Positions 1,621 through 41,519 of a DNA stretch of 64,000 nucleotides are shown piece after piece; the stretch's first letter is position 1; every line of letters starts with the position of its first letter. The stretch is from positions 441,538-505,537 of the forward strand of contig JAAOMT010000128.1 of assembly GCA_016748015.1 (NCBI GenBank). Direction: 5' to 3'. The DNA comes from Geosiphon pyriformis uo1. Its lineage: Eukaryota; Fungi; Glomeromycota. The translations under genes were made by a program, and so were the position numbers. The notes under the pieces were generated by a model. It searched no databases. It had not been told where the DNA came from and saw only the letters and a program-made list of their open reading frames with translations.

Positions 1621-2468
1621 TGTTACTCATAAAAAAAAACAGATATAGAAAATAGTAGACCAATAAGAAAATAGTATTTAGCACATGAGCACATTGCTCA
1701 GCAATGTAGAGCAATGTGGAGCAATATCAGAAAGCATGATATATTGCTTAATAATATGGAGTGATGTTAAAAAATTAGGGCACATTGTTTAGCAATGTGA
1801 ACATTGCTCAAGAAATCATAGCACATTGTTCGGGAATGTGAGCAATCTCATAGAACATCAATTATGTATATATAGTGGTAGTATTAGAAGTAGAAAGAGC
1901 AGAATTTTTAGTTAGAAATCTTCCATCCACAAATATTAAATAAATAAATTATCTACTATTCAAATCCATTTTCCACTATTAATACTTTATGTTGATAGTA
2001 ATTGATACTTATCTATGCTGGAACAATAGCTCCTGATCATGACTATTGACGAGATACTAACTTGTGCATCATCTTGGCTTATTTTTTTATTTTTTTTTAT
2101 TTATTTCTTTCTTTGATTTTTCTTGTTGAATACTAACTGATTAAGGATTAAAGTGCTAAGTAATTGACATCACAGATAGCTTGGTAAAAGACCCAGAAAT
2201 AAGAGTAAAATTATATATATTAACAGATAGCTTACCAGAAGGACACAAATGCCAGAATAAACCAGCCACCAAGCTGAAGACAGAAATTAGGAACACAACT
2301 CACCAACCAACTACATTGTCATTGAATCTCTGTCCATTATACAAAGAACTCCACTCTAAAACCTTCAGATACAACCAACATGCCAGTAACATCAATATTG
2401 TCAAGATATTAAGTACCAAGTTACAGATTTGTTATTTGATTTGAGATCTCAAATAATCATCTATAACA
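1621..2468 (+). repeat. 5' LTR of element B; U3 has ~40-bp tandem units with palindromic core CATTGCTCAGCAATG; TATA-like TATATATAG near 1867
   Basis: Direct repeat of 10880-11744 with TG...CA termini. Confidence 0.95.
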
Positions 2469-2470
2469 TT

Positions 2471-2487
2471 TGGTGCTCTCTGTGAGG
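2471..2487 (+). promoter_or_regulatory. Primer-binding site TGGTGCTCTCTGTGAGG (probably elongator tRNA-Met)
   Basis: Starts 2 nt after the LTR with TGG. The same PBS occurs at 18083, 59507, 41497-41513 (-) and partially at 30483-30498 (-). Confidence 0.85.
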
Positions 2488-2530
2488 TATAATCCTACAG
2501 AGAACCAGCACCATCAACAATTATCCAAAA

Positions 2531-5500
2531 GTGGCAGAATCAGAAATCATAGGAACAAACCATTTAGGATTTGCCAAATCCTTATTCCAACAGTACAGTC
2601 AACAGTTAGAATTGAACAATAATTATTTCCCAGCAAAATCAGCCTTTAACTTTTATGTCAATGATAAAATTACAGACTGCTTAGGAGGAACAGTTAACAT
2701 TGAATCCACAAGAGAAAATTTCTATACAGAATTATTTCAACATACCAGCTTACTAAGAAACTACAGTTTTGCACCAATTATTAGGGAAATCAATTAAATT
2801 ATTAAAAGATATACACAACAACAATTCCCCATCACCTACACAAATAAAGACAAAAGAAGATTGCAAATCCCAGCAGTAACACCAAAACAAATCCAACCAT
2901 CCAATTGGAAGAAAACCCGAGTTAAATCACCCACCCATCCATCATACCATTATATGCCCAAAAGTGCCATCAACATTTCATCAACAGATGTGTCCACATT
3001 AAACACAACATCAATCTTTGAATGCTTCCCATTTCAAAGTAAACAACAAAAAGCAGAGTTATTAAGATGATATGGTGATTACTTTGAAGGATTTAAATCA
3101 TGATTGCCAACACCATCAGAATTCTAATCACCACCACCTTAACCAGATTTCAGAAACACAAGTCCTTGGGAAATAATAAAATCAGAAAAAGAGGAAAAAG
3201 AAGAATCTGAAGATCAAAAATTTACTTACTAGAACCCGATCACAGAAAACTTGGAATTTGGAACCCCAAAACTTCAAACCCAGCAAAATTCAAATTTAGA
3301 AAACCCAGAAATCGAAACTCCAAATATTCAACCACCACGAAATCAGAACAATCAAAATTCTGATCTAATTAATCAACTGAACATATCTCCTGTTATCGTC
3401 ATTAACCCACCACCAATTGAACTGATTGGCCAGCCACTACAACAACCACACCAGCAGATTCAACAGCCACTAGTACTACTTCAACAACTACCACAACCCA
3501 ACTTAGATCCAATGGTATATGCACCAATAGCCAAACTTGAAAAATTCACCAGTGAAAAGGACAATGCCCAAGTATGGCTAAATAATATGGAGAAAGCCAT
3601 TGTAGCTAATAGATGGAATAATGCCAGAGCCATGCAAGCCATTCCATATTTTCTTCAGAATACTGCCAATTTATGGTACCAAAGTCTGGTCAACAAACCC
3701 CAAAATTTCAATGCATTCAAAATAAAGTTCTTAAGATATTTCAGCAACAATAACAGCATTAACAGATTAGCAAACATCTTTATTACCATTAAACAAGGAG
3801 AAAATAAAGTAGTCACTACTTACTTAGGATGCTTTTACAGGAATCTGCACCAGATCCAAGTCATTGACCCCAATTATTTCACAGTAGTCCAGATTCTAAA
3901 TCAGTTTATTCGCGGATTATGCAGTAGCATCCTGTAATGTGTACGTCCAATGCATCCCATTAATTTGCAAGCAGCTGTCACAAATGCCAGAGATTTTGAA
4001 GCCGCTGAACTCAAAGCTAATCATGTCCAAGCTGTTAATCTAGTAATAAATGGATCATCTAAATTGGATTCCAAATTGAAACAATTTAGTAATTTCATCA
4101 ATCAGAAATTAGAGAAATACTTAGCTGACAATCACGCAATTTATCAACCACCACAACAACGCAATAATTCCAGAAATGCAAATCATTTCCAGAATTAGTC
4201 ATGTTTATCATCATCGATCAATCAACAATGGCAACAGGAAATGTGTGTTTGCCACTATTGTGGTAAACAAGGATATTTACAAATTAATTGCTGCCATCAC
4301 TTAAATAACCAATGATCAGAAAATCAATATTGAAACTTTGATCACTGGTTTCAAATTCCAAATAACCCACCAAACTCAGAACTATATCATCAGAATTACT
4401 TACCTATGATGCAGCAGCCACCATATCAACCACCAGTATATTAAACACCAATTTATCAACTGATAACACCAGCAAATTATTAGCCACAGCCACAATCTAT
4501 TTATTAGCTGCAGCCTCAGGTAATATATCAGCTCCAACAAATTCAAACACCACCACAGAACTTATCTCAAAACAGAACCCAAAGGCCAAAATTGACCCAA
4601 CAAAGCTGAAGATTGTTGATGGTAGTCCACCAACTGATTCCCAGTTCTTCTACACAACCAGCAGGATTTTGACAATAGAATTCGGGCACCGAGTACACCT
4701 AACACCCAAATTCTCAGAACTATTTAAGTCTACTGGTTACCCCAGAAGATGCTCAACCCAATAACCCGGAAACCAACCAACACTCAACACTTACCAGCAA
4801 AATTCTGCCAGCTACTATTACCGAAAACAAATCACTGAATGCCATCTTTCCATTTGAACTTAAAGAACCATCAACCACACTGTTATTTAGTGGAGCCATT
4901 CTGGAAGAAAAACCAATTATCACCATGTACACTAATGTAAAAGTTGATAACCATGTCATCAAACTGATCCTAGATAGTAGATCAGCTAACAGTATTATTA
5001 CATGACAACTCATGAACCAATTAGGTCACCAAGTTGATCATGCTGCTAGTGTACACATAATCACTGCTGATGGAGTAACTAAAACTCCAATTGGCAAAAT
5101 TGACAACTTCCCTTTCGAAGTCAATGACATCATTACTCCCATCAAAGTCCTAATGATAGAAGCAACCCAATATTAAGCATTGGTAGACAATGATTAGTTA
5201 TTCAAAACTAATGCCATACTCGATTGAACCACTTAAAAATTACAATTTAGTCAAAACAGTCGACACATATGTGTACCAGCCACATGTGGCTATTTTAAGA
5301 CCACCAACTTGACAACTCCACTCATCAAATTGGAAGAAAAAAAGGAAAAACCTACCTGAGAAGCTTATCAAATGTCCTGAGCCAATGAAGATTACAACAA
5401 ACTACCACCTATACTCTCCTGGGACGACAATGGCAAAGAAAAACAGAAGGAGACCGAACTTACCTGGAATACCAACCAAACCTGAGAAATCAACAACAAC

Positions 5501-8500
5501 CAGGATGAACTAACTTGAGAGTGAACAGACAATAATAGTAAGGGAAAAAAAAAAGAGAAGGAAAAGAAAACAACACCCACCAACAGTACTTATAGTCCAC
5601 ATGCTTACACTTTACCACTACTGTCTGGCTATTGTTGACCAAAACTGGTATGTATTAATTGCAACAAAAAATTGTCATCAATAGGTGCATGCTGTGGTAA
5701 TAACGAAGAATACTCTACTGCCACCAAATTTTATTGACATCCATGCATCATAAAATGCTTTGGATAATCAAAACGATAAAAAAAGTGGGACAACCAATCA
5801 TGTTTCACATGTGAAACTATCTTACCTGATAAAGGAATGTGGAATGACATTCCTGGGTGCAGAGGAATGTGCGACAAGACATGCCAGTATACCATCTTGA
5901 TAAATGACTGAGTATACAAGGGAACACCAATTGATGATGCATGGAAAAGAGTGCTACAATGATTAGAAAAATATTCCCATAATGAACATAAACTTTGGAG
6001 AATGGCATATGTGAAAGCAGAAGGCACAACAACCAACAAATTACTGAAAATAAAAAACAATCCTCTATCTCTTTCTGAACCCAAATATGTTCAAACTTTT
6101 GATGTCTTTGGTAATATTGAGGATGACCCAGAGGAATTTCATGAACATTACTAGCAATTAGCACCCAGCAGAGAAGAGCAAGAACAATGCTTGGAAGAAA
6201 TAAACACCCAATTATATGACCACTGTTTGATCTTATGTGACTTTTAGTATTGTAATGAGTGTGACCTTATTTACAATCCACCACCATGCATGATCTACAT
6301 GATCCCAAAAGAAGACAAACCAATGAGCAACTGCATATCAGAATTAGAATCAACTTTCAATCCCAATTCAAACTCCAACAATAATGACAAAGAAAACACC
6401 AGTTTAAGCTCTACTCAATATGACAACAAAAATATCAATGATTCAGATTTCGATTCAAATCCCAAAATATACATTGTACTTCCTGATCTATCTAAAAAAC
6501 AGGAACTCAAATGGTATAGTGATAATAATGAAGGTATCATGCCAGAACACATGCATGACACTGATGTAGAGTTTGATCTAAGATATCCAGGAAAAGAAGC
6601 CATCAAATTGAAACCAAATTTGTGCATATGTATTGATTTCAAAATAGCTTTAGAAATTCTAGTAACAACTATAGTTCAATTAGCATTTAGGAGTAGCTTA
6701 GCAAAAAAAGGAATCAACATCAGAGGAGAAATAATTGACACAGGGTATATAGAAAATATCATTGCTATGCTACAAAATGATTCAGAAAAGGCCTATACCA
6801 TAGAGCCAAATGAAAAGATAGCACAGGCAATATTCTTGTCTTTGGTGAAAGTAGCTAAATTAGTATTAATGGGAAACAGAAAAGAATTAGAGATAACAGC
6901 AAGAGAGATACAGAGATTTGGATCCATGAGTAGAATAGATATACCAGTTAATATGGCAGAGGAAAAAATTGTTGACAAAGAAGAAATTATCTCAACCTGT
7001 CAAACAATTTTCATTTTGCTATATGACCAGTATATGTTAGTCATAAAAAGGGAAGTAAGAGATCAAGCTTAATTGTTTGAAGCAGAAGCCACTATTTGTG
7101 AATCAGGGGAGATTAGACTCACCAATCTCTACATATCAGCCAAAAGCCCCAAAAACATCAAAATCTCTATCTATAATACAACTGAAAAAGTCATCAAAAT
7201 ACCAAAGAGAACCATCATTGAATATTTAACCACCAAAGTTGAGGATCAACCACCAAACCACATTCCAGATTTTTCACACCTTTGCGGATATGTGGACATT
7301 ACATCACAAACCATTTATGGAAGAAGTGAATGTTATCTGCTCCAACCAGAACAATTAGAACAGATGAACATGGGAAATCTAGATCCACTTCAACAGATGC
7401 AACTCAAGATGTTACTCAACAATTTTAATGACATTTTTGCTAGTAAAAATGAATTTGGCCAAACCAACATCATCCAGCATCAAATTAAGACTAAAGATGC
7501 AATGTCAATTAAACAAAGAGCATACAGAGTACCACCAACTAGCCATGAAATCATTCATCAAGAAATTAACCAAATGCTTGACAATAGACTAATTCAGCTA
7601 TTAATAAATCCATGGTCATCACCAGTGGTTCTGGTCCATAAAAAAAATGGAAAAATCCGTTTTTGTGTAGACTACCAGAAACTAAATAGAATAACAAAAG
7701 ATGATAGCTATCCAACTCCAAAGATCCAAGAACTATTTGATGCTTTTGGAGAAAATAAATAGTTCTCAACACTAAATTTAGATAGTGGTTATTGGCAAGT
7801 AGTTATGGATCCAGCCAACAAAGAAAAAACAGTGTTCATCACAAAAAAAGGAAATTTTGAGTTTAAAGTCATGCCATTTGGCTTGATAAATGCTCCAGCA
7901 ACATTCCAACAGCTCATGAAAATTGTCTATACTGGATTACTATAGAAATCAGTAGTCATATACTTGGATAACACCAATGTGTTTTCAAAAACATTCAATG
8001 ATCATCTGCATCATCTTTAACAAATGTTCAAAAGATTAAGAAGAACAGAATTAAAACTAAATGCAACCAAATGTTTCTTTGGAAAAACTGAACTCAAGTT
8101 TTTGGGACATGTAGTGAGCAAAGATAGAATCAAAACAGATCCAGACAAGATTAAAGTAGTTAAGAACTTTTCAGTACCAATCAACTTAACAGAACTAAAA
8201 GCATTTTTAGGTTTCGTAAACTATTATCACCATTTTATCAAAGACTTTTCAAAACTGGCTCAGCCATTTTATCATTTACAGACCAAAAATATGAAGTATG
8301 AATAGACCAAAGCTTAACAAGAAGCATTTGACACATTAAGAAGAAAGCTTATTCAAGCTCCAGTATTGATGTATCCAGATCACAGCAAACTATTCATAAT
8401 CACTATTGATGCATCAGGTCAAGCATTGGAAGCAGTACTATCACAGAAAAGATCAGATGGAAGAGAACATCCAGTAGCTTATGCCAGTAGAAGCTTAAGT

Positions 8501-8764
8501 CCAGCTGAAAAAAACTATGGAACTCCAGCACTAAAACACTTAGCTATCTATTGGGCTGTTATCAAATAAAAGAAATACTTAAGTCAAAAGTTTGAAGTGT
8601 ACACTAATCACAAAGGATTGACTTCAATCCAGAAACAAGAATTTGCAGATGATTGCCATGCCAAATAAAAAATAAAACTTTTACTATTTAATTATATAGT
8701 ACATTATAAAAAGGGAAAAAACAATGGAAATACCAACGGACTGTTGTGAATGAGACAAATCTAA
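2531..8764 (+). pseudogene. Element B gag-protease-Cys-rich-dUTPase-RT-RNase H polyprotein (one ancestral frame, many premature stops)
   Basis: Fragments starting at 2531, 2861, 3251, 3950, 6290, 7073, 8024 and 8366 share one frame. Motifs: zinc knuckle ~4245, protease LILDS ~4965, dUTPase FDLRYP/RSSLAKKGI/GEIIDTGY, RT RFCVDY, RNase H TIDAS/AYASR. Confidence 0.92.
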
Positions 8765-8793
8765 AAACATTTTAACCAAAAATATAACAAAAG

Positions 8794-10170
8794 ATGAATA
8801 TACAAAAATACCAATAACTTCAATATTATATAAATATCCAATTGTTCAAGGAAAAATTATCTTAAAAAGAACAAAGAAACATAAAACAACAATTAAAAAA
8901 TTTTATTAACCATCAAAATATACTTTACTGAAAGAACAGAAGAAATCCAGATTAACCAACTAAAGTAATCACAGAACCAAAAAAAGAGACAATATTATTC
9001 AACATGCACTCAGACCCAACAGCAGGACATTTTCATAAAGAAGTGACCATGGAAAGAATCAGAAAGAGATATTATTGGCCATCAATGTATCCAGACATTA
9101 TCCAATATGTTCAGAATTGTGATGCTTGTTAGAGAAGAGGTGGAACAAAACCAAGTGAACCATTAAGACCAATCAAAGTAGGACAACCATTTAATCATAT
9201 TAGAATTAACTTAGTCAGACCATTAACAATCACCAGCAGAGGCAACAAATATATCGCAGTAGCCATAGACTATCTCACAAAATGGCCAGAAGCAAAAGTC
9301 ATTCAAAGAGCAGATACAAAATCTGTTGCTGAATTCGTCCATTAAGATTTAATATGTCAACATGGATGTCCAAAAGAACTACTATCAGATCAAGAAACTC
9401 ATTTTGTGAATAGAACATTAACAAAATTAAGTCAAAGATTTGGGATAAAAAGACCATTATTATCACCATATCATTCACAAACAAATAGACTAGTTAAAAG
9501 ATTTAACAGAACACTGTGTGAAGCAATCACCAAAATCAGTCAAGAAAACCAAGATGAATAAGATTTGTTTATACCATCAGTATTATTTGCTTATTAGACA
9601 ATGAGACAAGATACTATACAAACAACACCATTTGAATTGGTATATGATAAGACAGCAACATTACCAGTTAAAAGAGAAGTCAGCACATATCCAACAGAAC
9701 CAATAACAGAAGCTAATTTCCAAGAAATATTGTTGAGAAAAACATATGACCTAATGGAAACACTAAAAAACAGATGACAAAAAGTAGATAATAACATTCA
9801 AAAGTCTCAAGAAAAGCAAAAAGAATGACATAATAACCAATTATTAGATAAACCAGTTGAATTCAAGATTGGAAACAAAGTACTTCTACATCATACCAAA
9901 GCAGAAAAACAATGGAGTGGAAAATTCAATCCCAAATGGAATGGACCATTTCACATAGAAGAAATTCTGGGAAATAGAGCTTATAAACTAAGATGGGACA
10001 ACAAAATCTTAGCCAAAGCAGCACATGGTGATCGACTGAAACCATATCACCAAATAGCATCATCATCTACCAATAACATTCCACAATTAGGAGTACAACG
10101 AATACTGGTTCAACCAGATGAGATTCCATGAGATCTGAAACCAATCATAATCATTGGACCAAACACGTAA
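8794..10170 (+). pseudogene. Element B integrase, a separate ORF with its own ATG (HHCC, DDE core, GPF motif, no chromodomain)
   Basis: ATG 8794 (MNIQKYQ) lies 29 nt after the RNase H stop, in a different frame. Motifs: HSDPTAGH, YYWP, DYLTKW, WNGPFHI. Confidence 0.88.
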
Positions 10171-10230
10171 AATCAAACAATAAAAAAGTATATAAAGACA
10201 CAGTATACGTGACAAAAGCAACCAAGAAAA

Positions 10231-10866
10231 ATGGAAATGCCAGATCATATTTATGCTATAGCTCAACAATTATTCCAGACCTTAAGTCAACAATCTTTAG
10301 ACATGGAAATTATCATTAACAACCAAACAATTTGCTATTGAAACACCAAAAGAAAGACAAAGAATACACCATATTAGTGGTTACCAAAGAATAATAAAAA
10401 CTGGTCAGATAACATAATAGAAAAAGTAAAGAACACTTTTGGGAAAATACCTATTATGGTACCAACAGAAGAACTTACAAAAGAAAATTGGAAGCAATAA
10501 ACAGAACAACTTCTAATATCATACTGTTACTACCAGTTAGGTCGAAAGTTGAATATTCAAGAGTTGTATACCAACAAATCCAAGAAGATATTTAACCAAA
10601 ACATAATACAGCAAATTAAAAAATTTATTGGGAAAAAAGCGAATTCAACACTACATATAAGAACAATTTACTGACTGCACAACATATTTTAGAACTACCC
10701 AGAAATACTGTTACACTCTAAAATAGAAACCATAACCATTAACCAATAAGGAAAAATAAACAATACACAAGTAGAAGATGTGAAAAACAGAGTTGAACAA
10801 ACAATACTTGAAAAAAAAGTATTAAAATTAATTCAAAACAAAAATTTTGATGAAGCTCAATATTAA
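10231..10866 (+). pseudogene. Element B ORF3, ~211 aa, unknown function
   Basis: MEMPDHIYAIAQQLFQ...NFDEAQY*, one frame with internal stops; conserved in C at about 44307-44940. Confidence 0.7.
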
Positions 10867-10879
10867 AAGAAAGAGATAA

Positions 10880-11744
10880 TGTTACTTATAAAAAAGAAAA
10901 ACAGATATAAAAAATAATAGACCAATAAGAGAATAGTATTTAGCATGTAAGCACATTGCTCAACAATGTGGAGCAATGTCAGAAATCATGGCATATTGCT
11001 CAGCAATGTGGAGCAATATCAGAAAGCATAGTATATTACTCAGCAATGTGGAGCAATGTTAAAAAATTAGGGCATATTGTTTAGCAATGTGAGCATTGCT
11101 CAAGAAATCATAGCACATCGCTCAGAAATGTGAGCAATCTTATAGAACATCAATTATGTATATATAGCAGTAGTGTTAGAAATAGAAAGAACAAAATTTT
11201 TAGTTAGAAATCTTCCATCCACAAATATTAAATAAATAAATCATCTACTATTCAAATTTACTCTCCACTATTAATACTTTATGTTAATAGTAATTGATAC
11301 TTAACTATGCTGGAACAATAACTCTTGATCACAGCTATTGATGAGATACTAACTTGTGCATCACCTTGGCTCATTTCTTTATTTTTTTTTATTTCTTTCT
11401 TTCTTTGATTTTTCTTGTTGAATACTAACTGATTAAGAATTAAAGCGCTGAGTAATTGACGTTATGGATAGCCTGGTAAAAGATCCAGAAATAAGGGTAA
11501 AATTATATATATTAACAAATAGCTTACCAGAAGGGCATAAATGCCAGAATAAACTGGCCACCAAGCTGAAGACAGAAATTGGAAACACAACTCACCAACC
11601 AACTATATCATCATTGAATTTCTGTTCATTATACAAAGGACTCTACAACAAAACCTTCAGATATTACCAACAACATTATATTAATTGAGCATCCAGTTAC
11701 AGATTTGTTATTTGCTTTGAGACCCCAAATAATCACCTGTAACA
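10880..11744 (+). repeat. 3' LTR of element B
   Basis: Preceded by a purine tract; matches 1621-2468. Confidence 0.95.
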
Positions 11745-11908
11745 CTGAATACTCCACTTGAATGAATTTAACTATGATATTCAATACCACAAAAGAGCAA
11801 ATCATCAAAATGCTGATGCTCTTTCTAGACTTACCATCTAGTGATAGTACAACCTCTCAAACCAAACCAACTTAATTATTAGTAACTCCTTCACAAACAA
11901 ACACAATA

Positions 11909-13221
11909 ATGAACTTGAACAATTACTTTGTCTTAATAAAATTTTTGGGTAAAAGACAATACCCACCAAAATACACTCGATAGCAAAGAAAACATTTGCA
12001 CAAACAATCAAATTTCTATTTGATTCACCAAAACCAATTATATAAAAAAAACAGAAAAGATTCTGACTGTCCCCAAAAAGTCATTAGATTTGAAGAAAGA
12101 GAAATTGTAATATACAATGTGTATACTGACCCATTAGCTGGACACTTTGGAAAAACAAAAACAATTCAGAAAACTTTAGCTCACTATTATTAGCCTATTT
12201 TGGGAAAGAACATTGCCGAATACATCAAAATCTGTAACATCTGCCAAAGAAAAGGCAAATCCAATCACAAAGAAGATATCTATCCAATCTCTGTTGGTCA
12301 ACTATTTGACAGAATTGGTATAGATGTTGTTGGATCTTTAACAATAACTTCTAATGGTAACAGATACATTATCACAGCTACTGACTATCTTACAAAGTGA
12401 GTAGAAGCAAGAGCCACTCCAGACTAAATAGCAGTCTCAATAGCAAATTTCATTTATGAAAATATCATCTGTCATCATGACTGTTCAAAGAACTTTTATC
12501 TGATAGAAAAAGAGTTTTTCTTAGTACACTGGTTAAAAAACTTTGTAGAAAAATGAGAATACATCATAAACTTTCTTCTTTTTATTACCTCCAAACAAAT
12601 GGCCTAGTGGAACATTTTAATAGAACATTATGTAAAACCATAGCCAAAACCAGTAAAAAAACAAACTTATGAGACAAAGTGCTGTTTTTAGCTTTGTTTG
12701 CTTATAGAACTGTAAATCATAACATAACAAATTATGAACTTTTTTATTTGCTCTATGAATGCATAGCAACATTACCAATAGAAACTAATATTAAAACAAT
12801 ACCCTTTGAAGAAATTACAATAGAAAATTACAAAAACATTTTGTAAAGAAGACTTGGTATCATTTTTGACTCTTTGGTAGAAGCACAAATAATTGCTTTT
12901 GAAAAAATAAAACAGTTTCAAGAAAAACTTAAGAAAAAAAAAATCTATAAAACACTTTCTTTAAGTATTGGTAACTTGGTATTAGAATATTGTTTTGACA
13001 GAAACAATGTTTATAGTAATAAATTTTCTAGCCAATGGAAAGAACCCTTTATAGTGAACAAAGTTTTGAACAATGGTTTTTATATTCTTCAAGATCAATC
13101 TGGAACAATCTTTAATAATTGTTTTGTTTATAGTACACGACTCAAGAAATATCATAAATAACCTAATTGGTTGCTTGTTATGGTAATATCAACCCAAATA
13201 ATCAGCAAAAATCAAGTATAA
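11909..13221 (+). pseudogene. Element A integrase (separate ORF)
   Basis: ATG 11909 follows tandem stops. Motifs: TDPLAGHFG, CNIC, IGIDVVG, DYLTK. Confidence 0.85.
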
Positions 13222-21641: not shown

Positions 21642-22588
21642 TATTACCGGAGGTTTTTGGTCTCTTCTTAGCTCTTGTATGTTTGTTGTAATGCTGTTAA
21701 TTCACGACTATGAGAAGTGTTTGAACCTCCGATAACTGAATTTATCCTCAAATTATCTCCTATAATTTAAACTGCTGGACTTATAAGTAGAATGGCCAAT
21801 TCTGTGCCAGTTACTTTGTATAATTACATTGTAGTAAACGTCAATTCTTTCCCAGGAATTGCTTGTCTGAAAGCTTACTAAAAATGTGTAGTTACTTTGC
21901 TGTGAAAGTTAACTCTTCTACAGGAATCTCATCTATAGGCTACCCTAATGATTGTAATAAGAAAAGAAAGGAAAAATAAAAGAAATGTAAAAGAAATAAG
22001 ATTTTATCAAGGGAAACGTTTTCTATCCAGGCCTGGAGTCACTAACAGTTTACTGAAATTGGTAGCTAATCAATTTCAAAATATTAGTTGGGTTTTGAGG
22101 ATTTTCCAAGTGTAATAATTAAAGAATTTGGTTTTTCGAATTATTTGATATTTATTTCTTTTTGTGTGTATAAGAACAGTTCTAAGAAATAAATCTAAAG
22201 TAAGATACCTTTTCTCGAAAAGAGAAGCTCTTCTTTTATACAACTTGTCATAATACTATTTTATGAACTTGAACTTTGCTCTTTTCTACAATTTTACTGA
22301 ACTGAAGATATATTTTGGCAAACTACAAGTTATTTCTGCAAACTATTAGATATTTCAGTGAACTATCAATTATTTCGGCAAATTTCTACATATTTCGGGG
22401 TATTGCATAATTAATCATTGCACTTAGGTTACATTTGTATTATGTACAAATTGGGTTATTAATTAAATAATAATTTCAGACATTTTGCTAATGTAATAAG
22501 TGATAATTTGAAATAATAATATGCTAATTAATGATAGAAATAAAGATAATTTCATGCTAAATAATATCTCTAATTTTATCTGATAACA
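21642..22588 (-). repeat. 3' LTR of element D
   Basis: Direct repeat of 30501-31472; contains ~21-bp ATTTCGGCAAACT-type units. Confidence 0.95.
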
Positions 22589-22591
22589 TAA

Positions 22592-23277
22592 CCTCCTCCT
22601 TAAGACTGAGCTCTGTTGAAGTCCAAGTACTGTCTGTAATTTTCAGATAATAATCCAAAATTATTAAAGAAATTTGGTCTGAAAATTGTTGAAATTTCAG
22701 TTCTGTGAGCTTTCCAATGTATTGAATCTTCAAAGATTGTAAAATTGGGTTTTGTAAGACGTTTTCACAGGTGTGGAATAGGTCATAAAGTCTAAGAGCA
22801 GCTTTGAGCTTGTAGTGACTGTTTGTTGGTCCAGCTGTTGTCTTGAATTTGTTGTGAAATTGTTTCTGAATAGCTTTTTTTGTGAGGTTTGCTGTTGTAA
22901 GTTCCAGTTTTTGTTTGTAGAGTGTTTTTCCAATATGAAAATATCTATAGATTGGAGAGTATTCAGTGCTTTTCTTATTGAGACACAGTTGAAGTTTTTG
23001 TTGAATTGTAGTATTTGGTGGAATACTAATTGGGATGAGTATTAAGTTTTCTCTTAAAGCAAGCTTTAAAAGTTCTGGCAGATGAATTCCAGAATAACTT
23101 CTTGTGTTCTTCTTATACGGATGATATTTTCATGAATTTGGGGCTAAATTTGTAACTACTTCTGTTTGAGTATAATTAATGTGGTTTCCAGTAATAGTAA
23201 TAGACAATTCAGGTATTGTTTTTAAAGCTAACATTAGTTTTTAGAATAATTGTTGAATGTTTTGAGGAATAGTTATT
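22592..23277 (-). pseudogene. Element D ORF3, unknown function
   Basis: TIPQNIQQLF...LSITITGNHINY...KLKAALRLYDLF...IQYIGKLTELKF...; same position as, and weak similarity to, ORF3 of B and E. Confidence 0.6.
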
Positions 23278-23397
23278 ATAAGAGATTTAAAAATAAAGAA
23301 AATTATTTTTGGTATATGGGTTTTTATGTTATTTTTGTTTTGTTTTTGTGAGATTGTTTCTAAATTATAAGGAGATAACTATAATAATAAATTTAAA

Positions 23398-24783
23398 TTA
23401 AGTGTTCAAGTTGGGAGGTTGTTCAATAACAACTATTGGTTCTAAATTTTGGGGAATATCTTCAGGACTGATTAAAAAGGAATGTGTACCAATTTGTGGA
23501 ATTAATGATTCAGAATTGTTTCTAGAATTATAGTGTTTCAAACAATCTCCATGTGCAACTTTTGCTAGGATTTTGTTATCAAGTCTTAGCTTGTATGATC
23601 CGTTGCCTAGGACTTCATGGATAAAAAATGGTCCATCCCATTTATTTTCAAATTTTCCACTTCATTGTTTTTCAGCTTTAGTTCTGTGTAAGAAAACTTT
23701 GTTTCCAATTTTAAATTTATTGGTAACTGGAGACAGTTTGTCGTTATGCCATTCTTTTTGTTGAGCTTGGAAGTGTTTAATATGGGTGGCTGCTATTTGT
23801 CATTTTTCTTCTAACATGCTAAGCAGAGTATAGGCTCTTTGTTATAGTGTTTCCTGAAAGTTGTCTTTATCAATTGGTTATACTGGGTATGTTTCTATTA
23901 TGAAACTAATTGGTAACGTTGCTGTCCTTCCATAAGTTAAATCAAATGGTGTGTGTTTTGTGGTATCTTGTTTTAGTGTTTTATATGCTAGTAACACTGA
24001 TAGAATAAAGAGATCCCATTTTTGCTCAAAATTAGTTGAGACTTTGGCTAATGATTCACACAATGTTCTGTTAAAACGTTCTACAAGTTCATTTGTTTGT
24101 GGATGGTAGGACGAAAATAATGGTCTCTTGACATTAAATTGTTCATAAATTTTCTGGATTAAATTGTTCATGAAATGTGTTCCTTAATCAGATAAAAGTT
24201 TTATTGAGCATCCATGTCTACAAATAATGTCTTTGTAGATGAAGTTTGCTACTAATTTTGCATCTGCTTATTGAATGGCTCTCGCTTTGGGCCATTTGGT
24301 GAGATAGTTTATCACTACTGCAATATAACAGTTTCCTTGGTTTGTGATAAGTAGTGGTTTGACTAAATTAATACCAATTCAGTCAAAAGACTGTTCAACT
24401 TTGATTGGATTTAAAGGTTCTGTAGAGCGAGTTCCTTCTCTTCTTTGACAACTATCACAAGACTTAACGTATTCATGAATGTCTTTTCTTATTCAAGGCC
24501 AGAAGTAATATTCTAGTGTTTTTTGGGTGGTGCTGTCTTTTCTTAGGTGTGCTAATGAAGGGTCTAAGTACATATTATATAAAATGGTTTCTTTTTTATG
24601 TTCTTGTATTAATCTGAGTGGATTGTCTGGGTTTCTGAAGTTTCGATAATAAATTATGTTGTTGTGTAAAAGGTATTGTTTGGCTTGTTGTTGTAACCGA
24701 TGTTTTTTATCTGGGAACCAATCTGTTAGGATTGTTAATGTCTCCAAATATTGTTTAAGATTGTTGTAATTTTCGGGGTTCAT
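23398..24783 (-). pseudogene. Element D integrase (separate ORF)
   Basis: ATG 24783 (MNPENYNNL) lies 46 nt after the RNase H stop. Motifs: YYFWP, YHPQTNELVERFN, WDGPF. Confidence 0.88.
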
Positions 24784-24829
24784 TGTTTATTGTTTTGTGG
24801 TTAATTCAAATGGGTGTTGGTTTTGTATT

Positions 24830-27800
24830 CTAATCTTGTCTCATTTTTGAGAGACAATCAATGTTGGTGTGGAGTTTTCCTGGTTTGTGGTGTACAATGT
24901 ATCAGTAGTTGGCTAAAAATCCTGTCCATCAGGTTTGTTTTGTATTTAGCTGAGTGTTTTTGTTCTGAAGCCATTTAAGTCCAATATTATCAGTAATAAT
25001 ATTGAATTCTTTGGGTCTAAGGTAAAGATTGAAGTGGTGTAGGGCCCAAATTACTGCTGCAGTTTCTAATTCTGTTGCAGGGTAGTTTTTTTCAGCTGGT
25101 TTCAATGTTCTGCTAGCATAAGCAATTACTCATTTATTTCCATTGTCATCTAACTGTAATAGGATGGCACCAAAGGCAGTATAAAAGGCATCTGTTGCTA
25201 ACCGGAATCGGTTGCTGAAATCTGGGTAGGCAAGAATTGAAGCTGTTGTTAGTTTTTCTTTGAGGATTTCAAATGCATTTTGGTGTTTAGCAGTCTATTT
25301 GTATTTGATGTTTTTGGTGGTAAGCTGGTTGAGAGGTTTTGCAATTTCTGAAAATTTTTTGATAAATTTCCAATAGTAGGAGGCTAATCTTATAAATTCT
25401 CTTAGTTCCATAGTGTTTTGAGGAGTTTTGAAATTTTTGACAGTGCTGATTTTTCCAGGGTCCAGTTTGATTCTATCTTTACTAACAATATGACCAAGGA
25501 AGGCCAAGCTTGTTTTTCCAAAGTAGCATTTTTTGATGTTGAGTTTCAGTCCTGTTTTTCGTAATCATTGAAAAACTTCTTGCAGATGTTTTAAGTGTAA
25601 TTTGAATGATGGAGAATAAACATCAGTATCATCAAGATAAATGACTACTGACTTCCAAAAGAGTCCTTTGTACACAATATCCATTAATCTCTGAAATGTT
25701 GCTGGTGCATTGCATAATCCAAAAGGCATTACATTGAATTCATAATTTTCTTCTTGGGTTGTGAAGGCTGTTTTGGGACAATTTTTGAAGTCCATGGCAA
25801 CTTGCCAGTATTCGCTTTCTAGATCTAGTGTTGAAAAGTATTTGGCCTTTCCAAGGACATCCAACATATCATCAATTCGGGGAAGGGGATAGGCATCTTC
25901 AATTGTGACACTGTTGAGTTGTCAATAATCAACACAAAATCATATCTTTCTATTTTTTTTTAACTAAGACCACAGATAAGGCCTATGGACTCATTGATGG
26001 TTGAATAAGCCCATTGTTGAGCATCTGTTGTACTTCTTTGTGAATAAATTGGTGAATTTCTAGAGCAATTCAGTAGACTTGCTGTCGCCTTGGTTTGGCA
26101 TCTCCTGTATAGATTTGGTGTTGAACCAAATCAGTTCTTCCTAAGTCATTGTTGTTTTCAGCAAAGATATCAGCAAATTCTGCAATTAGCTCTTTGAGCT
26201 GGTTCTGTTGTTGTGGTTCAAGTTGTCTCATGTTGATTCGAAATAGTTTTTCTATAACAACATAGTAGTTTTTAGAGCTGGGTTTTGGGTTGATTTTTGG
26301 TAGTGAATGTCCAATAATTTCAGAGAAATCGAGGACTGTTTGGGGTAATTCTTGTTGAAAGATATTACTGTGAATAACTTTAATTTCTAAGTTATTTAAT
26401 AAAACTATGGGGTAATTATTGGGGTTGTAAAAAGTAACTCAGATTTTCTTTGTTCCTTCTGGAATATAAATGTTTGGGATCGAGATATTATGTTTCAAGC
26501 AGATTTGTTTGTTGGACTCAAAAATTTGTTGTATGGTTGTTGGCTTTTCACAAGTATAAATTTCAGGATGTTCTCTAAAGGGTGAAATAGTAATTGGTTG
26601 TGGAAGTCATAGAATCTGGTGAGATTTACTTTGTTTATTAAGAGCTATGTTTACTGGAACTGTGAATCGTCCAGTTGAACCAAAACCATTGGTTTCTTTT
26701 CTACTTTTTCCCAATTGTTCTCTTTGACTGATTAATTGTAAACCTGAAATGTTGATTAAGAGTAAATAAATAGCTTGAGCAATTTTTTCAGCATGTTCAA
26801 TCTGAAAAGATTTATCAGTTTCATTTTGTAACATGATTGTAATGTTTCCTGTATATCTAGCATCTATAATTCCTCCTCTAACATTGATTCTTTTGCTTGC
26901 CAATGATGATCATAAAGCGATTTGGATTATTGTTCTTGGTGGGATTTTAAGGGCAATTTTGAGGTTGATTTTTGTGAGCAATTTGGGTTTGAGAGTAAGA
27001 GTATCTTTTCCTGGATATCTTAGATCATATCCAACATCAATTTCATGGGCTTTTTCCAGTTTTATTCCTTGTTTATTGTTGTTGAAGTATTTGAGTTGTG
27101 AAGCAGGCTGATTTTCGATAAGATAGATAGATGTTGTTTCAATTTTTTCTGTTGCTTCAGGTTCTCCGAATTCAATTTTGTATTCATCATTTTTGCTGGG
27201 CAAGGAAATGCTAAGAGCATAGCATTCAGAACACTATTGTTTATCACAAGACATTGTGCATTCCTCACATAATTTAATGTTCATTTGTTCTAGTCATTGA
27301 GCTTGAGCTTCTTTAGTTGGGTAAGTGTGACTTGCAATTTGATGGTACACTTCTATTTCATCTTTATAATCGAATCCAGCTAATTTCAAGGTATATTCAA
27401 TATATTCAGCTTCTTTTATTTGAAAAACATCTTCTTTGGTTCCTCTGTTAATTAAGATCATGGCAAGTTTGTAGATTATTTTGGCATTATAGGGGTAGTA
27501 ATAAAGTTTGTTGAGAGTGCTGTTGTAAGTGGTATTGAAAGATGTTTCACATTTTACCTTTTCTACAATAGAAAGAGCATATTGACAAGTTTAATCACAG
27601 ATTCCTCCTCTAAAGGTAATGTCAATCTAATCACATTCGTCAGAAAGCTGCTTTCCACAAGTAAAACAGGGTGTTCCATCCTATTTTCCACTTCTTTTAA
27701 TCAAGTGGCCTTATCATTCTTGATGGCAGGCTTTGCAAAAGTAACAAGTATGACTTCTATATTTTTTTTCTGGCAAGATGCAGACTCCCATTGAAGAGAG

Positions 27801-30455
27801 TTTCTTGTAGCAGTCCTTGCATTTGAGTGGAATGTAAGGGTGTTGTTTCTTTGGTTCTGGTTTAGAATATGGAATGTCCCATCTAGGGGTTTTTGGTTCC
27901 TCTGGATATGAGTTTGTTGCAAAATACATTTGTTCAGTTTCTTCAGCCCAGTTAAATGTTGATTCAAGTGCCATAAATGTTTCAACTACAGGCTTTTCTT
28001 CCTCCTCTTCAAATTTGAAGACAGGGGCTTTTTCTGATTGTTTGTTGAATGTACCACAAGTAGCAGGTACTTGGGCATGTTGTCCTTAATAAGAGAGTTG
28101 TAATTCTTGGGTTTCCCAGTCTAATTTTGCATTGGCTTTTTGGAGCCAATCATTTCTAACAAGGGCTTGATACTGGGGCACATCCATTACAAGAACTTTG
28201 ACTGAAATGGTAATTCCATCAAGAGTGAATGGAAAATTGTCAATTTCTCTTACTGGAGTCTTTTTTATGCCATTGGCAGTGATGATTACTGTCTGAGCTG
28301 GTCGGTCAACATTTCTTTTTAACTGTTGCATCAACTGGTAGGTGATGATGATTCTGGTGGATCCACTGTCTAGAATTAAACAAATTGCCTTTCCTTTGAC
28401 TTCTGCTTCAGTGTACATAGCAGTAATTGCTTTTTGTTCATTGGCGGCTGCATTGCTAAGCAGAAATGGTGACTTATTTGCTTTGAACTCAAAAGAGAAT
28501 ATATCTGAAAGGTTGGTGTTTTCAGCAATTCTGGCTGGTGGGATTGTGGTAAGAGTATAGGAAGAGTTTTGTTGTTATGCTGCAGCTCTACCTTTCAAGA
28601 GTGCAGTATGGTGAAAATCCTGTTCTTCAAGTATTATAAGATAGCTAGATTGAGTATGATAATAGGTAGATCTTGGTTGAGCTGGATTTTGGAAAACTAA
28701 TTGGTTATTTGGGTTGATTCTGTTGTTGTTTGTTGCAAATTGGTTTTGTGGTGCAAATTGGTTTTGTTGAACCAATCTTCAAGCAGATACTTGGTAATGT
28801 TGAATGAGTTGTCGATACTGTTGTTGCATTGGCTGTGGAGCAGTTTGATAGTAGTTGGTTTGATATTGCGGTCTTGGTGGATAGTAAGCTGGTGATAGTG
28901 GTGGTTGGTAATAAGATTGTTGTGGCAAAGGGTAACATTGATTACTTCTGTTTTGTTGGTCTCATTGTAGCTTTTTGCAATCTTTTTTCCAGTGGCCTGG
29001 GATTCCACAATAATGGCAATTCTGAGGCTGGTTATTAGAGGATGATGCAAAATTGTTTTGATTTCATCTTTGGGATGGTTGATATCTTTGGGGTTGCTGT
29101 TGTTGTTGGTTGGTGAAATAGTTTTCGACTTTCTTTGTGAGTTGGTCAATTTTCTTCTCAGCTGCTGAGCTGGTTTCTCCAATGGCTAAGTTCACAAGTT
29201 TTGTACAATTGGCTTCTTCCATGGCCATTTCATATCTCTTTGCATGTTGAATGGCAGAGTTTAAATCTTTTGGGGCATGTGGGCGAACTTTTTTAATCAG
29301 TTTATCCTTTAAACCAGCGATAAATTGATCTAAGATTTGAGCATCAGAATAATAATCATTAATTTCAAGTTGGCGAATTCATCTGAGAAGTTTGTTGAAT
29401 TTCCCAATATAAGTCATGACAGATTTGAAGGATTCTTGTTTGATATTGCAAAAATGATTTTGAAGTGTGATTGAGGTGTTGTTATCGGTAAATTGTTCTA
29501 AGAAGACAGTTTTGAAAGCTGTCCAGTTATTAAAAGAGGTGGTCAAGTTTTCAAACCATTTGCCTGCTGTTCCTTTGAGAAAGTAGAGAATTGTTCTTAA
29601 CATTTTGGCAGCATTTCATCCATTTGCATCTCCAGCTTTAGTAACTTGGTCAAGCCATTCTTGGGGACTGGTCTCAATGTCTTCTCCATTAAATTTAGGG
29701 ATTTTTGCGATATATGCTGTCATTTCATCTTCTTTATTTTCATTGTCTATTGATTCTTTTTCAGATATTTTAGAGTCATTTTTTTCGTTCACTGCTGTCT
29801 CAGAATGTTCACTTTGATTTTCAGCTAGAAAGTCAAGAAGATTGGAACTAGTTTGAAGAGGTTCTTGTTGTCTGGTGGGACTTCTGGGTGATATAAAATC
29901 TTCTGGTCTTGTAAATCAATTTAAGGGTGAATTAGGTGTTTGTGCTTGTGCAAGTGAAGCTGGAAAAGGTGTGATAATAAGTGGAAGTTTTGAACTGGTT
30001 CCTTGTTTAGATGTTTGTAAGTGTTTGGCAGTTGTTTTTGGTAGTATTGGTGTATTTGGGGTGGTTTTTGAGTATTGCTTCAATTTTTGTTTGCCTTTGT
30101 TGCTTGTTTTTGTCTCTAATTCAAAATCAATAGAGTATTGAAACTGCACTGGATATGTTTCTTCACAGTACTTGATAATGTTAAAATTAAGTTTTTGAAA
30201 GTAAATGACAAGTGTTTTACTGTTAAAGCCTTCAGTTCTCAACTGTAAATAGTGCACTAAATTATTGTAAAGGTTGCTTTTAACTACTGAGATGTTGTAA
30301 TTTCCAAAAAGATAATTGTTAATACAGTTTTTAATGTATTGGTATACTGATGTCTTGATAACTTCAATTCCGTCTGGAATGTTGAATTTTTGCTTGCAGT
30401 TGGTGTAAATTGACTGGTAATACTTTAGAGTTGTTGTATCTGGTGTGGTCGCCAT
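24830..30455 (-). pseudogene. Element D gag-PR-Cys-rich-dUTPase-RT-RNase H polyprotein
   Basis: Fragments starting at 30455, 29603, 28775, 28418, 27974, 27203 and 26903 are in one frame. Motifs: LILDSG, GYDLRYP/GGIIDA/NGFGSTG, YLDDT. Confidence 0.92.
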
Positions 30456-30500
30456 TTTGAAGTTGTTTTTGCTGTATTGTTTCTGTGGGAGAGCACCAAA

Positions 30501-31472
30501 TGTTACCAGAGATTTTTGGTCTTTTCTTAGCTCTTGTATGTTTGTTGTAATGCTGTTAATTCATGACTATAGAAAGTGTTTGAACCTCCAATAACTGAAT
30601 TTATCCTCAAATTATCTCCTATAATTTGAACTGCTGGACTTATAAGTGGAATGGCCAATTCCATGTCAGTTACTTTGTATAGTTACATTGTAGTAAACAT
30701 TAATTCTTTCCCAGGAATTGCTCGTCTGAAAGCTCACTAAAAATGTGTAGTTACTTTGCTGTGAAAGTCAACTTTTCTACAGGAATCTTGTCTATAGGCT
30801 ACCCTAATGATTGTAATAAGAAAAGAAAGGAAAAATAAAAGAAATGTAAAAGAAATAAGATTTTATTAAGAGAAACGTTTTCTATCCAGGTCTGGAATCA
30901 CTAACAGTTTACTGAAATTGGTAGCTAATTAATTTCAAAATATTAGTTGGGTTTTGAATTTTCCAAGTGTAATAATTAAAGAATTTGGTTTTTCAAATTA
31001 TTTGATATTTATTTCTTTTTGTGTGTATAGAAATGGTTCTAAAAGATAAATCTAAAGTAAGATATCTTTTCTTGAAGAAAGAAGCTCTTTTTTTATACAA
31101 CTTGTTATAACACTATTCTATGAACTTGAACTTTGCTCTTTTCTATAATTTTGCTGAACTGAAGATACATTTCGGCAAACTACAAGTTATTTCTGCAAAC
31201 TATTAGATATTTCAGTGAACTATCAATTATTTCGGCAAATTTCTACAAATTTTGGCAAACTTTTGAATGTTACATATTTCGGAGTATTGCATGATTGATC
31301 ATTGCACTTAGATTACATTTGTGTTATGTACAAATTGGGTTATTAATTAAATAATAATTTCAGACATTTTGCTAATGTAATAAGTGATAATTTGAAACAA
31401 TAATATGCTAATTAATAATAAAAATAAAGATAATTTCATGCTAAATAATATTTCTAATTTTATCTGATAACA
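30501..31472 (-). repeat. 5' LTR of element D
   Basis: Adjacent to the PBS; TG...CA termini. Confidence 0.95.
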
Positions 31473-34448: not shown

Positions 34449-35186
34449 TGTTATGGGTTGGAGTAACAAGCTAACAGATAGCAAGGGAGAACAGTATTGT
34501 ATGGTGATGGAAATAAACAAAGAAGGAATTACAATAAGAAAGTGAATTGAATAAGTAGGAATTCAATGTGCATAATCAGTCTCATAAAAATCACAGTCAC
34601 TAATCTTTTCTTAAATCTGAAGGTAGAGGAATAGTCTATGATTGTCAACAAGATAACACCACTGCTATTATTCTATGCCTCAACTCAGCGATTCTTAGAA
34701 TCAATAACAGGTATCGTTGTACTTTTCAATCGTTTCTTTATTCAATGAATTACAAGAGCAAGCCAATTGCTTCTCAGGCTAATTCTAACAAATACAAATC
34801 AAGAAGGGAAAAAAATAAGATATGTGAATGCCAACAAGTAGATACTTGAAGGTAAGGAAAGGGGAATAAGCAATTATGAGAGGAAGTAATTAATATTGTT
34901 TATTTCGTTACTTTGATCATGTCTTTCTACAGCTAAGAGAATCATCACTTATATAGCTATCTAAAGTGGTCAATGACCAGGTCAACAATCAGATCAATGA
35001 TCAGGTCAACAATCAGGTCAATGATTAGGTCATTAATCAGGTCAATGATCAGGTCAATAATCAGGCCAACGGTCAGGTCATTGATCAGGTCAACAATCAC
35101 TATCTAAAAATAGGGTGGCTAATTATATGACATCAGTGGCTAATACATGTGATAATTAATAAAAACTATGTGTTTCAACCATAACA
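34449..35186 (-). repeat. 3' LTR of element E (738 bp)
   Basis: Matches 41520-42197 except for extra 12-bp tandem units. Confidence 0.95.
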
Positions 35187-35194
35187 TCATCCTC

Positions 35195-35812
35195 TCAAAA
35201 GAGATTGAGCTCCAGCAAAATCAAACTATTTATGGAATAGTCTATGTGAAGAGTTTTGTCTAACTCAAAACTAACTAGTTTGTTAAAGTCTTTTGTGGAT
35301 AGAGTATATAGTACTTGAAGTGAAATAAGCTTTGTATCCAAGAGACCAAATCTTTGTATAAGAGTTCTGGCTCTTCTTGCAATGGTCAAAACTCTTGGGA
35401 CATTTAAACGTATAATGCCCAAAATTTCCACTTGTATCTCTGAAGTTGTTTTCTTTATGAGCTTCATGTCTTCTATGATTTCACCAAGACGACCATAGAG
35501 TTCTAGTTGTCTTCCATATGACAAGTTTTTGTCTATGGGCAAGATTTCTTGTATTGTTTTTCCAATTGTGCTGGAAGGTGAAAATATCACTACTGTTATG
35601 CTTTCCAATAGGTATTTATCCATTTCGCTACCAATTCTTTCTCTTCTGGTAGTTGTTTTCTTTGGTCTAATAACAATGTGAGTTCCACTGTTGTCTGTTA
35701 TAGTAGTTTGTTTTCCAATAGTCAGAGTAGCATTTGTATAGTTCTTGATCCAGTACTCATGGAGAGTATAGAAAGCATTTTAAATGTTTTGATCTAGGAA
35801 ATAATTGTTCAT
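35195..35812 (-). pseudogene. Element E ORF3, ~205 aa, unknown function
   Basis: MNNYFLDQNI*NAFYTLHEYW... is in frame with ORF 35195-35623. Confidence 0.72.
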
Positions 35813-35859
35813 GTTGATTGAAGATACCTCTGTTTTGGGAATGGTGCATTTATTTATAT

Positions 35860-37167: not shown

Positions 37168-37226
37168 TATCATGTTTGTTTGTGGGGGAGTTACAAATAA
37201 TTAAGTTGGTTTGGTTTGAGAGGGTT

Positions 37227-39920: not shown

Positions 39921-39926
39921 TTTAAA
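39885..39926 (-). promoter_or_regulatory. -1 programmed ribosomal frameshift signal (U UUA AAC plus downstream stem-loop)
   Basis: Correctly phased TTTAAAC sits immediately before the gag stops. The -1 frame is open and is the pol frame. A TGCAC...GTGCA stem follows. Confidence 0.8.
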
Positions 39927-41467: not shown

Positions 41468-41519
41468 ACAATAAGGGAATAAGTGAATTTTGACAACCTC
41501 ACAGGGAGCACTATTTTTA

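Follow-up and report, generated by a model that had tools for sequence, protein, structure and literature searches.

Within a clade of Ty3/Gypsy retrotransposons found in symbiotic fungi, integrase is almost certainly encoded by a gene of its own behind gag-pol, in a variant of the Ty3/Gypsy organisation that is apparently undescribed. In retroviruses and LTR retrotransposons, integrase enters the particle as the tail of Gag-Pol. This canonical organisation, with integrase within Pol and released by protease, was found neither at the five RNase H-integrase junctions of the window (the whole stretch of 64,000 nucleotides of Geosiphon pyriformis DNA analysed here) nor at the 14 metagenome loci of the clade in which the junction is visible, all of which are split. 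An organisation of gag-pol, integrase and a third ORF (ORF3) as a lineage trait, as proposed in a first-pass annotation, is thus supported.

Nested LTR retrotransposons in the window

Self-comparison and translated searches of the window revealed that element A is interrupted by element B, and element C by elements D and E. A sixth element (F) runs from 58863 to the window end and is truncated before the reverse transcriptase (RT). The complete elements have the following features:

1621..11744, + strand: element B, complete LTR retrotransposon, in the RNase H region of element A
1621-2468 and ~10880-11744, + strand: LTRs of B, 84% identical
1617-1620/11745-11748: 4-bp target duplication of B, CTAG/CTGA, decayed
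2471..2487, + strand: primer-binding-site-like sequence of B, 2 nt past the 5' LTR, near-identical in D and E
21642..31472, - strand: element D, complete, in C; LTRs 31472-30501 and 22588-21642 (91%)
21638-21641/31473-31476: 4-bp target duplication of D, CCAT/CCAT
34449..42197, - strand: element E, complete, in C; LTRs 42197-41520 and 35186-34449 (87%)
34445-34448/42198-42201: 4-bp target duplication of E, ATGG/ATGG

Elements B, D and E thus have TG..CA ends, LTR pairs of 84-91% identity and 4-bp target duplications; the ends and duplications imply that the integrase of these families worked. The primer-binding-site-like sequence starts with TGG and lies 2 nt past the 5' LTR in B and D, and is altered in E; a purine-rich run precedes the 3' LTR. 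The domain order is gag, protease, RT, RNase H and integrase, with RVT_1, RT_RNaseH, Integrase_H2C2 and rve domains; PF17921 (the HHCC zinc domain) and PF00665 (the rve core) were identified in E and its relatives. By DNA identity B and C (83%) form one family and A and E (84%) another, with D as a third that is sister to B in both the RT and the integrase tree. All window copies are dead, and their damage consists mostly of transitions (C-to-T and G-to-A), which make up 85% of the substitutions between B and C.

Several other properties of the window were observed. The three datable insertions have similar 4-bp sites (CCAT, ATGG and a decayed CTGG) and all lie within other elements of the clade, which may reflect a target preference (n=3). 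A dUTPase is found between protease and RT in B (6248-7072) and D (26607-26909), the same arrangement as reported for PosPlaTy3-5 (PMC2864245). A candidate second protease in D, a match to Spuma_A9PTase, was rejected, as the same weak match lies just before RT in locus L008 and in fused outgroups. Both LTRs of E contain an array of 12-nt tandem repeats (34956-35111 and 42015-42122), with differing copy numbers. Element F carries an insertion (61684-63430) with inverted arms of 679 nt, 97% complementary and 389 nt apart, and probably represents a young, non-autonomous DNA transposon or a foldback element. An open frame of 564 codons at 51940-53634 is rich in Q, P and S, has a Cys cluster near its end and is without a Pfam match. 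Finally, 55609-58009 is an intron-rich host PIG-S gene; its exon at 56533-56871 shares 99% identity with a protein of Geosiphon pyriformis and 73-76% with Ambispora.

The five RNase H-integrase junctions

The junctions and integrase cistrons of elements A to E are as follows:

3233..8764, + strand: gag, protease, dUTPase, RT and RNase H of B in one frame; 38 decay stops in 1843 codons; TAA at 8762-8764
8765..8793, + strand: spacer of B, 29 nt, 62% A, 3% G, without ATG or YAG
8794..10170, + strand: integrase cistron of B, with its own ATG, N-terminal extension, HHCC, core and SH3-like end; frame differs from RT
11839..11911, + strand: junction of A, TAG-TGA-TAG, 67-nt spacer, ATG 11909, out of frame
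11909..13221, + strand: integrase cistron of A, one decay frameshift near 12490
24781..24832, - strand: junction of D, TAG 24832-24830, 46-nt spacer, ATG 24783, out of frame
23398..24783, - strand: integrase cistron of D
37165..37235, - strand: junction of E, TGA-TAG-TAA 37235-37227, ATG 37167, out of frame
35860..37167, - strand: integrase cistron of E, best preserved, 66% identical to the intact stand-alone relative P0003
42836..42871, + strand: junction of C, TAA, 30-nt spacer with a second in-frame TAA, ATG 42869, in frame
42869..44250, + strand: integrase cistron of C, 1-nt deletion near the N-terminus

In all five cases pol stops 4-5 codons past the RNase H end motif, and the spacers contain 0-5% G. 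The spacer of E measures 65 nt from the first stop and 59 from the last, with a second in-frame ATG 6 nt upstream. Every stop and ATG reported for A to E in the first-pass annotation was recovered at its position. The layout described there also holds, albeit with spacers of 29-67 rather than 29-60 nt, and integrase is indeed out of frame in B, D and E and behind two stops in C; A, which had been omitted, is out of frame as well. The gag-pol frame of B begins further upstream than the segment listed, near 2500, and its proposed continuity from gag to RNase H was confirmed: this single frame has the fewest stops in nine of ten 600-nt bins between 2500 and 8500, and another frame takes over from 9100. 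In the exceptional bin (4300-4900), two compensating 1-nt gaps distinguish B from C. In line with the three Gypsy families of the first-pass annotation, the five elements represent only three independent junction types (B/C, A/E and D).

The window copies contain 6-11 stops per 376-744 codons; a stop by itself is therefore weak evidence there, and it is the intact relatives that carry the case. When B was aligned with C and A with E (~9.1 kb in total), six frame-breaking indels lay outside the spacers, a rate of ~0.33 per kb per copy, and because they are so rare, the odds that decay produced an out-of-frame junction of at most 100 nt in each of the three families are estimated to be of the order of 1e-4 or lower. 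The B/C and A/E pairs each differ by a 1-nt indel within the spacer, suggesting that spacer length may have been free while the elements were active. Among 9516 contigs aligned to the B junction region (8450-9150) no indel reached 10%, a weak result; 40 of 146 differences were listed, none of them at the stop or ATG positions. One DNA contig skips 8700-8744, with skip ends that are not those of an intron, and sequencing run X3, which is probably DNA, yielded a single contig that is less than 90% alike to this region.

Stand-alone integrases in relatives

With the integrase of E as protein query (X at its two stops), 981 relatives of similar length were found among 2759 candidates, of which the best 120 are 41-68% identical to the query; the named ones are from Rhizophagus and Geosiphon. 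The clade is present in the genome of Rhizophagus irregularis, a species in which Gypsy elements are expressed (bioRxiv 2021.03.30.436303). Gene callers start at Met and the length filter excludes fusions, which biases the count of Met starts, but position and second residue are informative: in 92 of the best 120 the protein starts at a Met that precedes the first HHCC His by 68-72 residues (by exactly 71 in 79 of them), and in all 92 the second residue is D, E or N, compared with 24% after 663 internal Mets. A further 15 of the 120 are called from a Met at 54. Full-length stand-alone integrases also form clusters of constant length, exemplified by one in which 12 of 14 members have 422 aa. 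In a corresponding search for fusions among longer proteins (best 120 of 718), those covering at least 80% of the query are at most 38% identical to it, except gene model P0123 and P0127. In most rows of the fused outgroups the match to the integrase profile begins at positions 2-33, so the integrase start codon sits about where a protease would cut, at the point where the N-terminal extension of integrase begins in fused relatives.

Of 550 relatives found at the DNA level in 5 of the 64 parts of the metagenome collection, 80 loci were retained, and 46 of these show both the RNase H end and integrase. These comprise 22 fused loci, all outside the clade, the 14 split loci within it, one split locus outside (L032) and nine that were set aside. 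The latter nine (L038, L041, L044, L046, L052, L063, L065, L068 and L069), tried as split candidates, were rejected as they group with fused outgroups in the integrase tree and look decayed. In 11 of the 15 split loci 177-1479 open codons precede the stop and integrase is open for 399-542 codons or to the contig end; L008, L009 and L011 are open from gag through the integrase end. A continuous RNase H-integrase frame was looked for, and the intact relatives were found to be split instead. Viral contigs yielded only three weak, unrelated loci.

Family trees place most of the split junctions together. A group of 59 rows in the integrase tree holds the 14 split loci (SH-aLRT 91). The RT trees are quick trees with SH-aLRT support only, from which the long row P0179 was dropped; here 15 of 16 split rows form one group (SH-aLRT 86). 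A clade of all 16, the monophyly raised in the first-pass annotation, is not rejected (p-AU 0.78), which falls short of proof. In the RT tree, built without named reference elements, the split rows fall among fused Pol proteins of Gypsy type, and the split group stands beside five fused rows. Nearest to it are P0127, P0133/P0152 and L048/L064, of which the last pair look like plant Athila-type elements. P0127 represents a real fused family of 12 members, seven of them listed at 935 aa. It nests in the integrase clade (SH-aLRT 96) but adjoins the split group in the RT tree, and lacks the first 50 positions of the integrase profile; by these sequence comparisons it is likely a re-fusion or a recombinant.

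Junction geometry and proposed expression of the separate integrase

Over 20 junctions spacer length varies from -11 to 727 nt. Counted for the frame that ends nearest the integrase ATG, start and stop codons overlap in five relatives, namely as TAATG in L008, ATGA in L010, ATG-2 nt-stop in L017 and L013, and ATG-5 nt-stop in L004. A start that overlaps the stop or lies within ~14 nt of it is confined to these five loci and is seen neither in the window (29-67 nt) nor in the other relatives; that is only five of ~22 family-level junctions, with p = 0.009 against a chosen null of 6%. Two ORFs, of 83 and 85 codons, bridge 521 nt in L013 and overlap with one another as well as with the integrase start. 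L010 contains two successive ATGA joints, and the integrase-ORF3 joint of L007 is ATGA. The ORF at L010:521-1237, which has ATGA joints to both neighbours including integrase, encodes an Mrr_cat_2 restriction-endonuclease domain (E 5e-9). Known forms of coupled termination-reinitiation are AUGnxUGA (x = 2, 5, 8, 14), UAAUG and AUGA (PMC5972666), and the match of the five overlap geometries to these forms makes reinitiation our best guess. As a complete explanation, translation of the separate integrase from full-length RNA by termination-reinitiation is one that we rate just above an even chance; the route of expression by itself, judged from sequence, we put at about evens. Among reinitiation, subgenomic and spliced routes, reinitiation appears to have the best indirect support and splicing the least.

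Gag-Pol ends just after RNase H, and a start codon at the integrase N-terminal extension takes the place of the protease cut. We propose that ribosomes would terminate at the pol stop and restart at the integrase ATG. In some families the restart would occur directly at the overlapping start/stop sites. In the window families it would follow a short scan over an unstructured, G-poor and ATG-free spacer, as proposed for LINE-1 ORF2, and ORF3 could be served by the same coupling. The least certain step is delivery, where integrase made on genomic RNA might be caught in cis as Gag assembles, or meet the cDNA later, possibly assisted by ORF3. Several observations speak against restart: the window spacers are longer than classic coupled sites, and the upstream ORF is very long and is itself frame-shifted or stop-split in L008, L011 and L012. 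The long ATG-containing spacers of L012 (727 nt, 12 ATGs, nine tiny ORFs) and L032 (278 nt, three ATGs) are hard to fit with simple restart.

A rather unlikely alternative is that integrase and ORF3 are made from a subgenomic RNA whose internal promoter lies within RT/RNase H or the spacer, with the spacer as its 5' UTR and recruitment in trans as for foamy-virus Pol. A G-poor leader with a good start context fits such a 5' UTR equally well: 60-nt folding z-scores are between -1.5 and 1.4 at 18 of the 20 junctions, a purine is present at -3 in 20 of 24 integrase starts, and the spacers of L012 and L032 are compatible with it. Foamy viruses, moreover, have an internal promoter and recruit Pol without fusion to Gag (PMC12789967). 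However, a subgenomic RNA leaves the overlaps and ORF chains of the five relatives without a reason, it would require one promoter per ORF in L010 and L013, and in E, L010, L016, L017, L018 and L040 the integrase start is preceded by another ATG at a distance of 5-16 nt.

The proteins upstream of the integrase start vary in other ways. Pol extends ~315 and 590 residues past RNase H before stopping in L009 (3494-4441) and L012 (~5000-6705), and these extensions are acidic and proline-rich, with Cys/His clusters and without a Pfam match. The joint of gag and pol consists of an in-frame stop between protease and RT in L012 (3358-3360) and an overlapping frame change in L008 (3132-3147) and L011 (2898-2919), while L009 and B have a single frame.

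A conserved hairpin before the integrase ATG

Seven loci share a conserved RNA motif shortly before the integrase ATG, consisting of a 5-bp stem and the loop CANNGUGA:

L009:4464-4503, L007:186-225, L014:9-48, L015:178-218, L019:495-534, L003:24-63, L021:21-60: hairpin motif

A model made from six of the loci found the seventh, held-out L021 (E 5e-10). In the stem 35 of 35 cells pair and all five pairs are changed on both sides; the covariation score was reached by none of 500 shuffles, which control kinship among the seven sequences only partly. In four of the loci the distance from the upstream stop to the ATG is 62-77 nt. Nothing credible was found in the window (best E 1.9, within integrase) or in 33 of the 40 loci searched, and the motif had no Rfam match in the six loci scanned. 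The hairpin could be a restart enhancer, an entry site, a packaging site or a protein-binding site. As a separate observation, GACCTGCGTAAGGA occurs shortly before the integrase ATG in L012 (7380-7432) and L066 (30-78), both within the clade, and is possibly a second motif.

The covarying hairpin is what speaks for internal ribosome entry or shunting, in which RNA structure before the ATG would direct initiation with no need for upstream termination. We consider this improbable, given that the hairpin is restricted to seven related sequences and could equally serve packaging, protein binding or reinitiation.

Splice signals, fused products and decay

A spliced, env-like subgenomic mRNA that puts the integrase ATG at its 5' end is still more improbable. 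The foamy-virus pol mRNA is spliced. Spliced env mRNAs are likewise a precedent (PMC12789967), and YAG together with branch-like sites occurs at A, D, L007, L012, L015 and L019. Such sites are not enriched over background, though: no excess of splice acceptors before the integrase ATG was found relative to 1058 other ATGs, a usable YAG being present in 12 of 24 cases versus 55%, and one with a branch-like site in 6 of 24 versus 17%. The other 12 of 24, including B, C and E, lack any YAG within 150 nt that is not separated from the start by another ATG.

It is very improbable that readthrough, frameshift or a small intron still yields a fused RT-integrase. Integrase is in frame in C, L002, L011 and L023, RT/RNase H and integrase are joined in the NCBI gene models P0123 and P0124, and P0127 is fused. 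However, 4 of 20 junctions are in frame and 6 and 10 in the other two frames, with shifts even between close paralogues, and some have tandem stops. A stop-removing intron, the possibility raised in the first-pass annotation, fares no better: at 13 of the 20 junctions no in-frame GT-AG intron could remove the stop and still leave the last RNase H Asp in place, and the candidate fusing introns at the remaining ones share no donor. Because all three offsets occur and there is no shared fusion intron or acceptor, a common frameshift, readthrough or splicing mechanism is disfavoured by the sequences. Each of the fungal gene models P0123-P0125 leaves out the RNase H end together with the beginning of integrase, and each at a different place, as predictions forced over a stop would, and the invariant Met-D/E/N start is unexpected within a polyprotein. 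A scan of 15 loci against Rfam yielded no family except one chance microRNA match, and TGGGA, the TURBS core, is absent within 120 nt upstream of the stop at all 20 junctions.

Decay of a fused pol after insertion, as the source of the stops and frame changes, is a negligible prospect. The window copies are full of C-to-T and G-to-A changes with stops every 40-120 codons, and the two TAA of C are readable as decayed CAA. Random decay, against which the first-pass annotation had already argued, is nevertheless contradicted by intact relatives without any other stop that are split at the same place, and is further opposed by the integrase clusters of constant length and, weakly, by the lack of indels reaching 10% among contigs on the B junction region.

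ORF3 downstream of integrase

Every window element has a frame at the position of ORF3, of which the following could be delimited:

10231..10866, + strand: ORF3 of B, approximate and decayed, extending to the putative polypurine tract; profile match not above shuffles
22671..22958, - strand: part of ORF3 of D matching the family profile (9.6 bits; best of 450 shuffles 4.4)
35195..35812, - strand: ORF3 of E, approximate; profile 5.0 bits, borderline

The profile did not score above shuffles in the copies of A, B and C. Downstream of integrase, ORF3 (~145 aa) is present in 8 of the 14 in-clade loci that extend at least 480 nt further, but in 0 of the 14 fused loci that extend at least 680 nt, and the family comprises 420 clusters at 50% identity. 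Its predicted fold is a confident all-helical domain (pLDDT 95.7), for which no Pfam family, no Foldseek match in viral or PDB libraries and, in a wide search, no Z above 5.1 was found; the lack of a match to the predicted model does not establish a new fold. Atlas matches to a closterovirus coat protein (0.94) and a phage translation repressor (0.92) were rejected for sharing too few features. The Rhizophagus gene models P0471 and P0472 (558 aa) run continuously from integrase into ORF3, which hints, at the level of gene models, at a functional link but may be an artefact of prediction.

A more far-reaching form of the reinitiation proposal is possible, though doubtful: across the clade the genomic RNA would be polycistronic and read by chained stop-restart, with integrase delivered without Gag-Pol fusion by means of the RNA hairpin and an ORF3 helper of no known fold.

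Comparison with known systems

These elements share with Ty3/Gypsy elements (Metaviridae, e.g. yeast Ty3) the LTRs with TG..CA ends, a primer-binding-site-like sequence, a putative polypurine tract and the order gag-protease-(dUTPase)-RT-RNase H-integrase. They differ in that integrase is separate and followed by an unnamed ORF3, whereas in Ty3/Gypsy it lies in Pol and is released by protease, the standard route (PMC5911963, PMC3248453, PMC12789967). Chromoviruses carry a chromodomain at the integrase C-terminus; none was detected in the five full-length stand-alone integrases scanned or among the domains of the best 120 relatives. In Errantivirus-like elements the third ORF is env, in contrast to the short, predicted all-helical ORF3 without Pfam or fold match, which is presumably too short for an env.

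In SART1 (UAAUG) and LINE-1 (63-nt spacer) a transposition enzyme is likewise encoded by a downstream cistron behind a long ORF; the SART1-like overlap is seen in L008 and a LINE-1-like spacer length in the window, L002, L009 and L016. Their ORF2, however, contains RT and endonuclease and involves no particle loading, whereas here integrase alone is split off in an LTR element. Reinitiation has been tested experimentally for SART1 and LINE-1 (PMC5972666); here it is proposed from sequence. The geometries of the five overlapping relatives are also those of caliciviruses, influenza B (TURBS), the hypovirus CHV1 (UAAUG) and the victorivirus HvV190S. The TURBS viruses differ in having UGGGA, which is absent here, and the window has gaps instead of overlaps. 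Pneumoviruses tolerate up to 29 nt, and fungal viruses provide precedents (PMC5972666), being cited as reinitiation cases together with the caulimovirus transactivator (PMC10275272). Coupled termination-reinitiation thus does occur on fungal ribosomes.

To find part of the Gag-Pol fusion abandoned is not unique to this clade. To our knowledge caulimoviruses have no integrase. They do have polycistronic RNA with TAV-driven reinitiation, and foamy viruses too have given up part of the fusion (PMC10275272, PMC12789967), but in foamy viruses integrase stays in Pol and Pol is split from Gag. No similarity of ORF3 to a known transactivator was found, unlike caulimovirus TAV. Loading of integrase via RNA or protein contacts would have a precedent, by analogy, in foamy viruses (PMC12789967). 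A stand-alone Met-started Gypsy-like integrase is presumably present in Ginger-type DNA transposons. These consist of integrase only, without RT and with inverted ends, whereas here it lies within LTRs downstream of RT/RNase H.

In the literature searched, which lacked most subscription papers and Repbase reports, an integrase ORF of its own was nowhere found described for LTR retrotransposons. In the accessible parts of PMC5911963, PMC4427930, PMC6431247, PMC3248453, PMC2864245, PMC11952901, bioRxiv 2021.03.30.436303 and bioRxiv 2024.04.02.587720 integrase is inside Pol or the layout is not addressed.

Biological significance

LTR elements make up 41% of the Geosiphon genome (PMC11952901). 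That this clade colonised symbiotic fungi without a Gag-Pol link for integrase implies that the fusion is dispensable and that another loading route exists. A separate gene lets the element set the dose of integrase apart from that of RT. The layout also explains the stand-alone 'integrase core domain' genes and the forced gene models in the annotations of these fungi. Finally, the natural variants of the clade, i.e. overlaps, short spacers, ORF chains, a covarying hairpin and a probably re-fused family, can serve the study of restart after a very long ORF.
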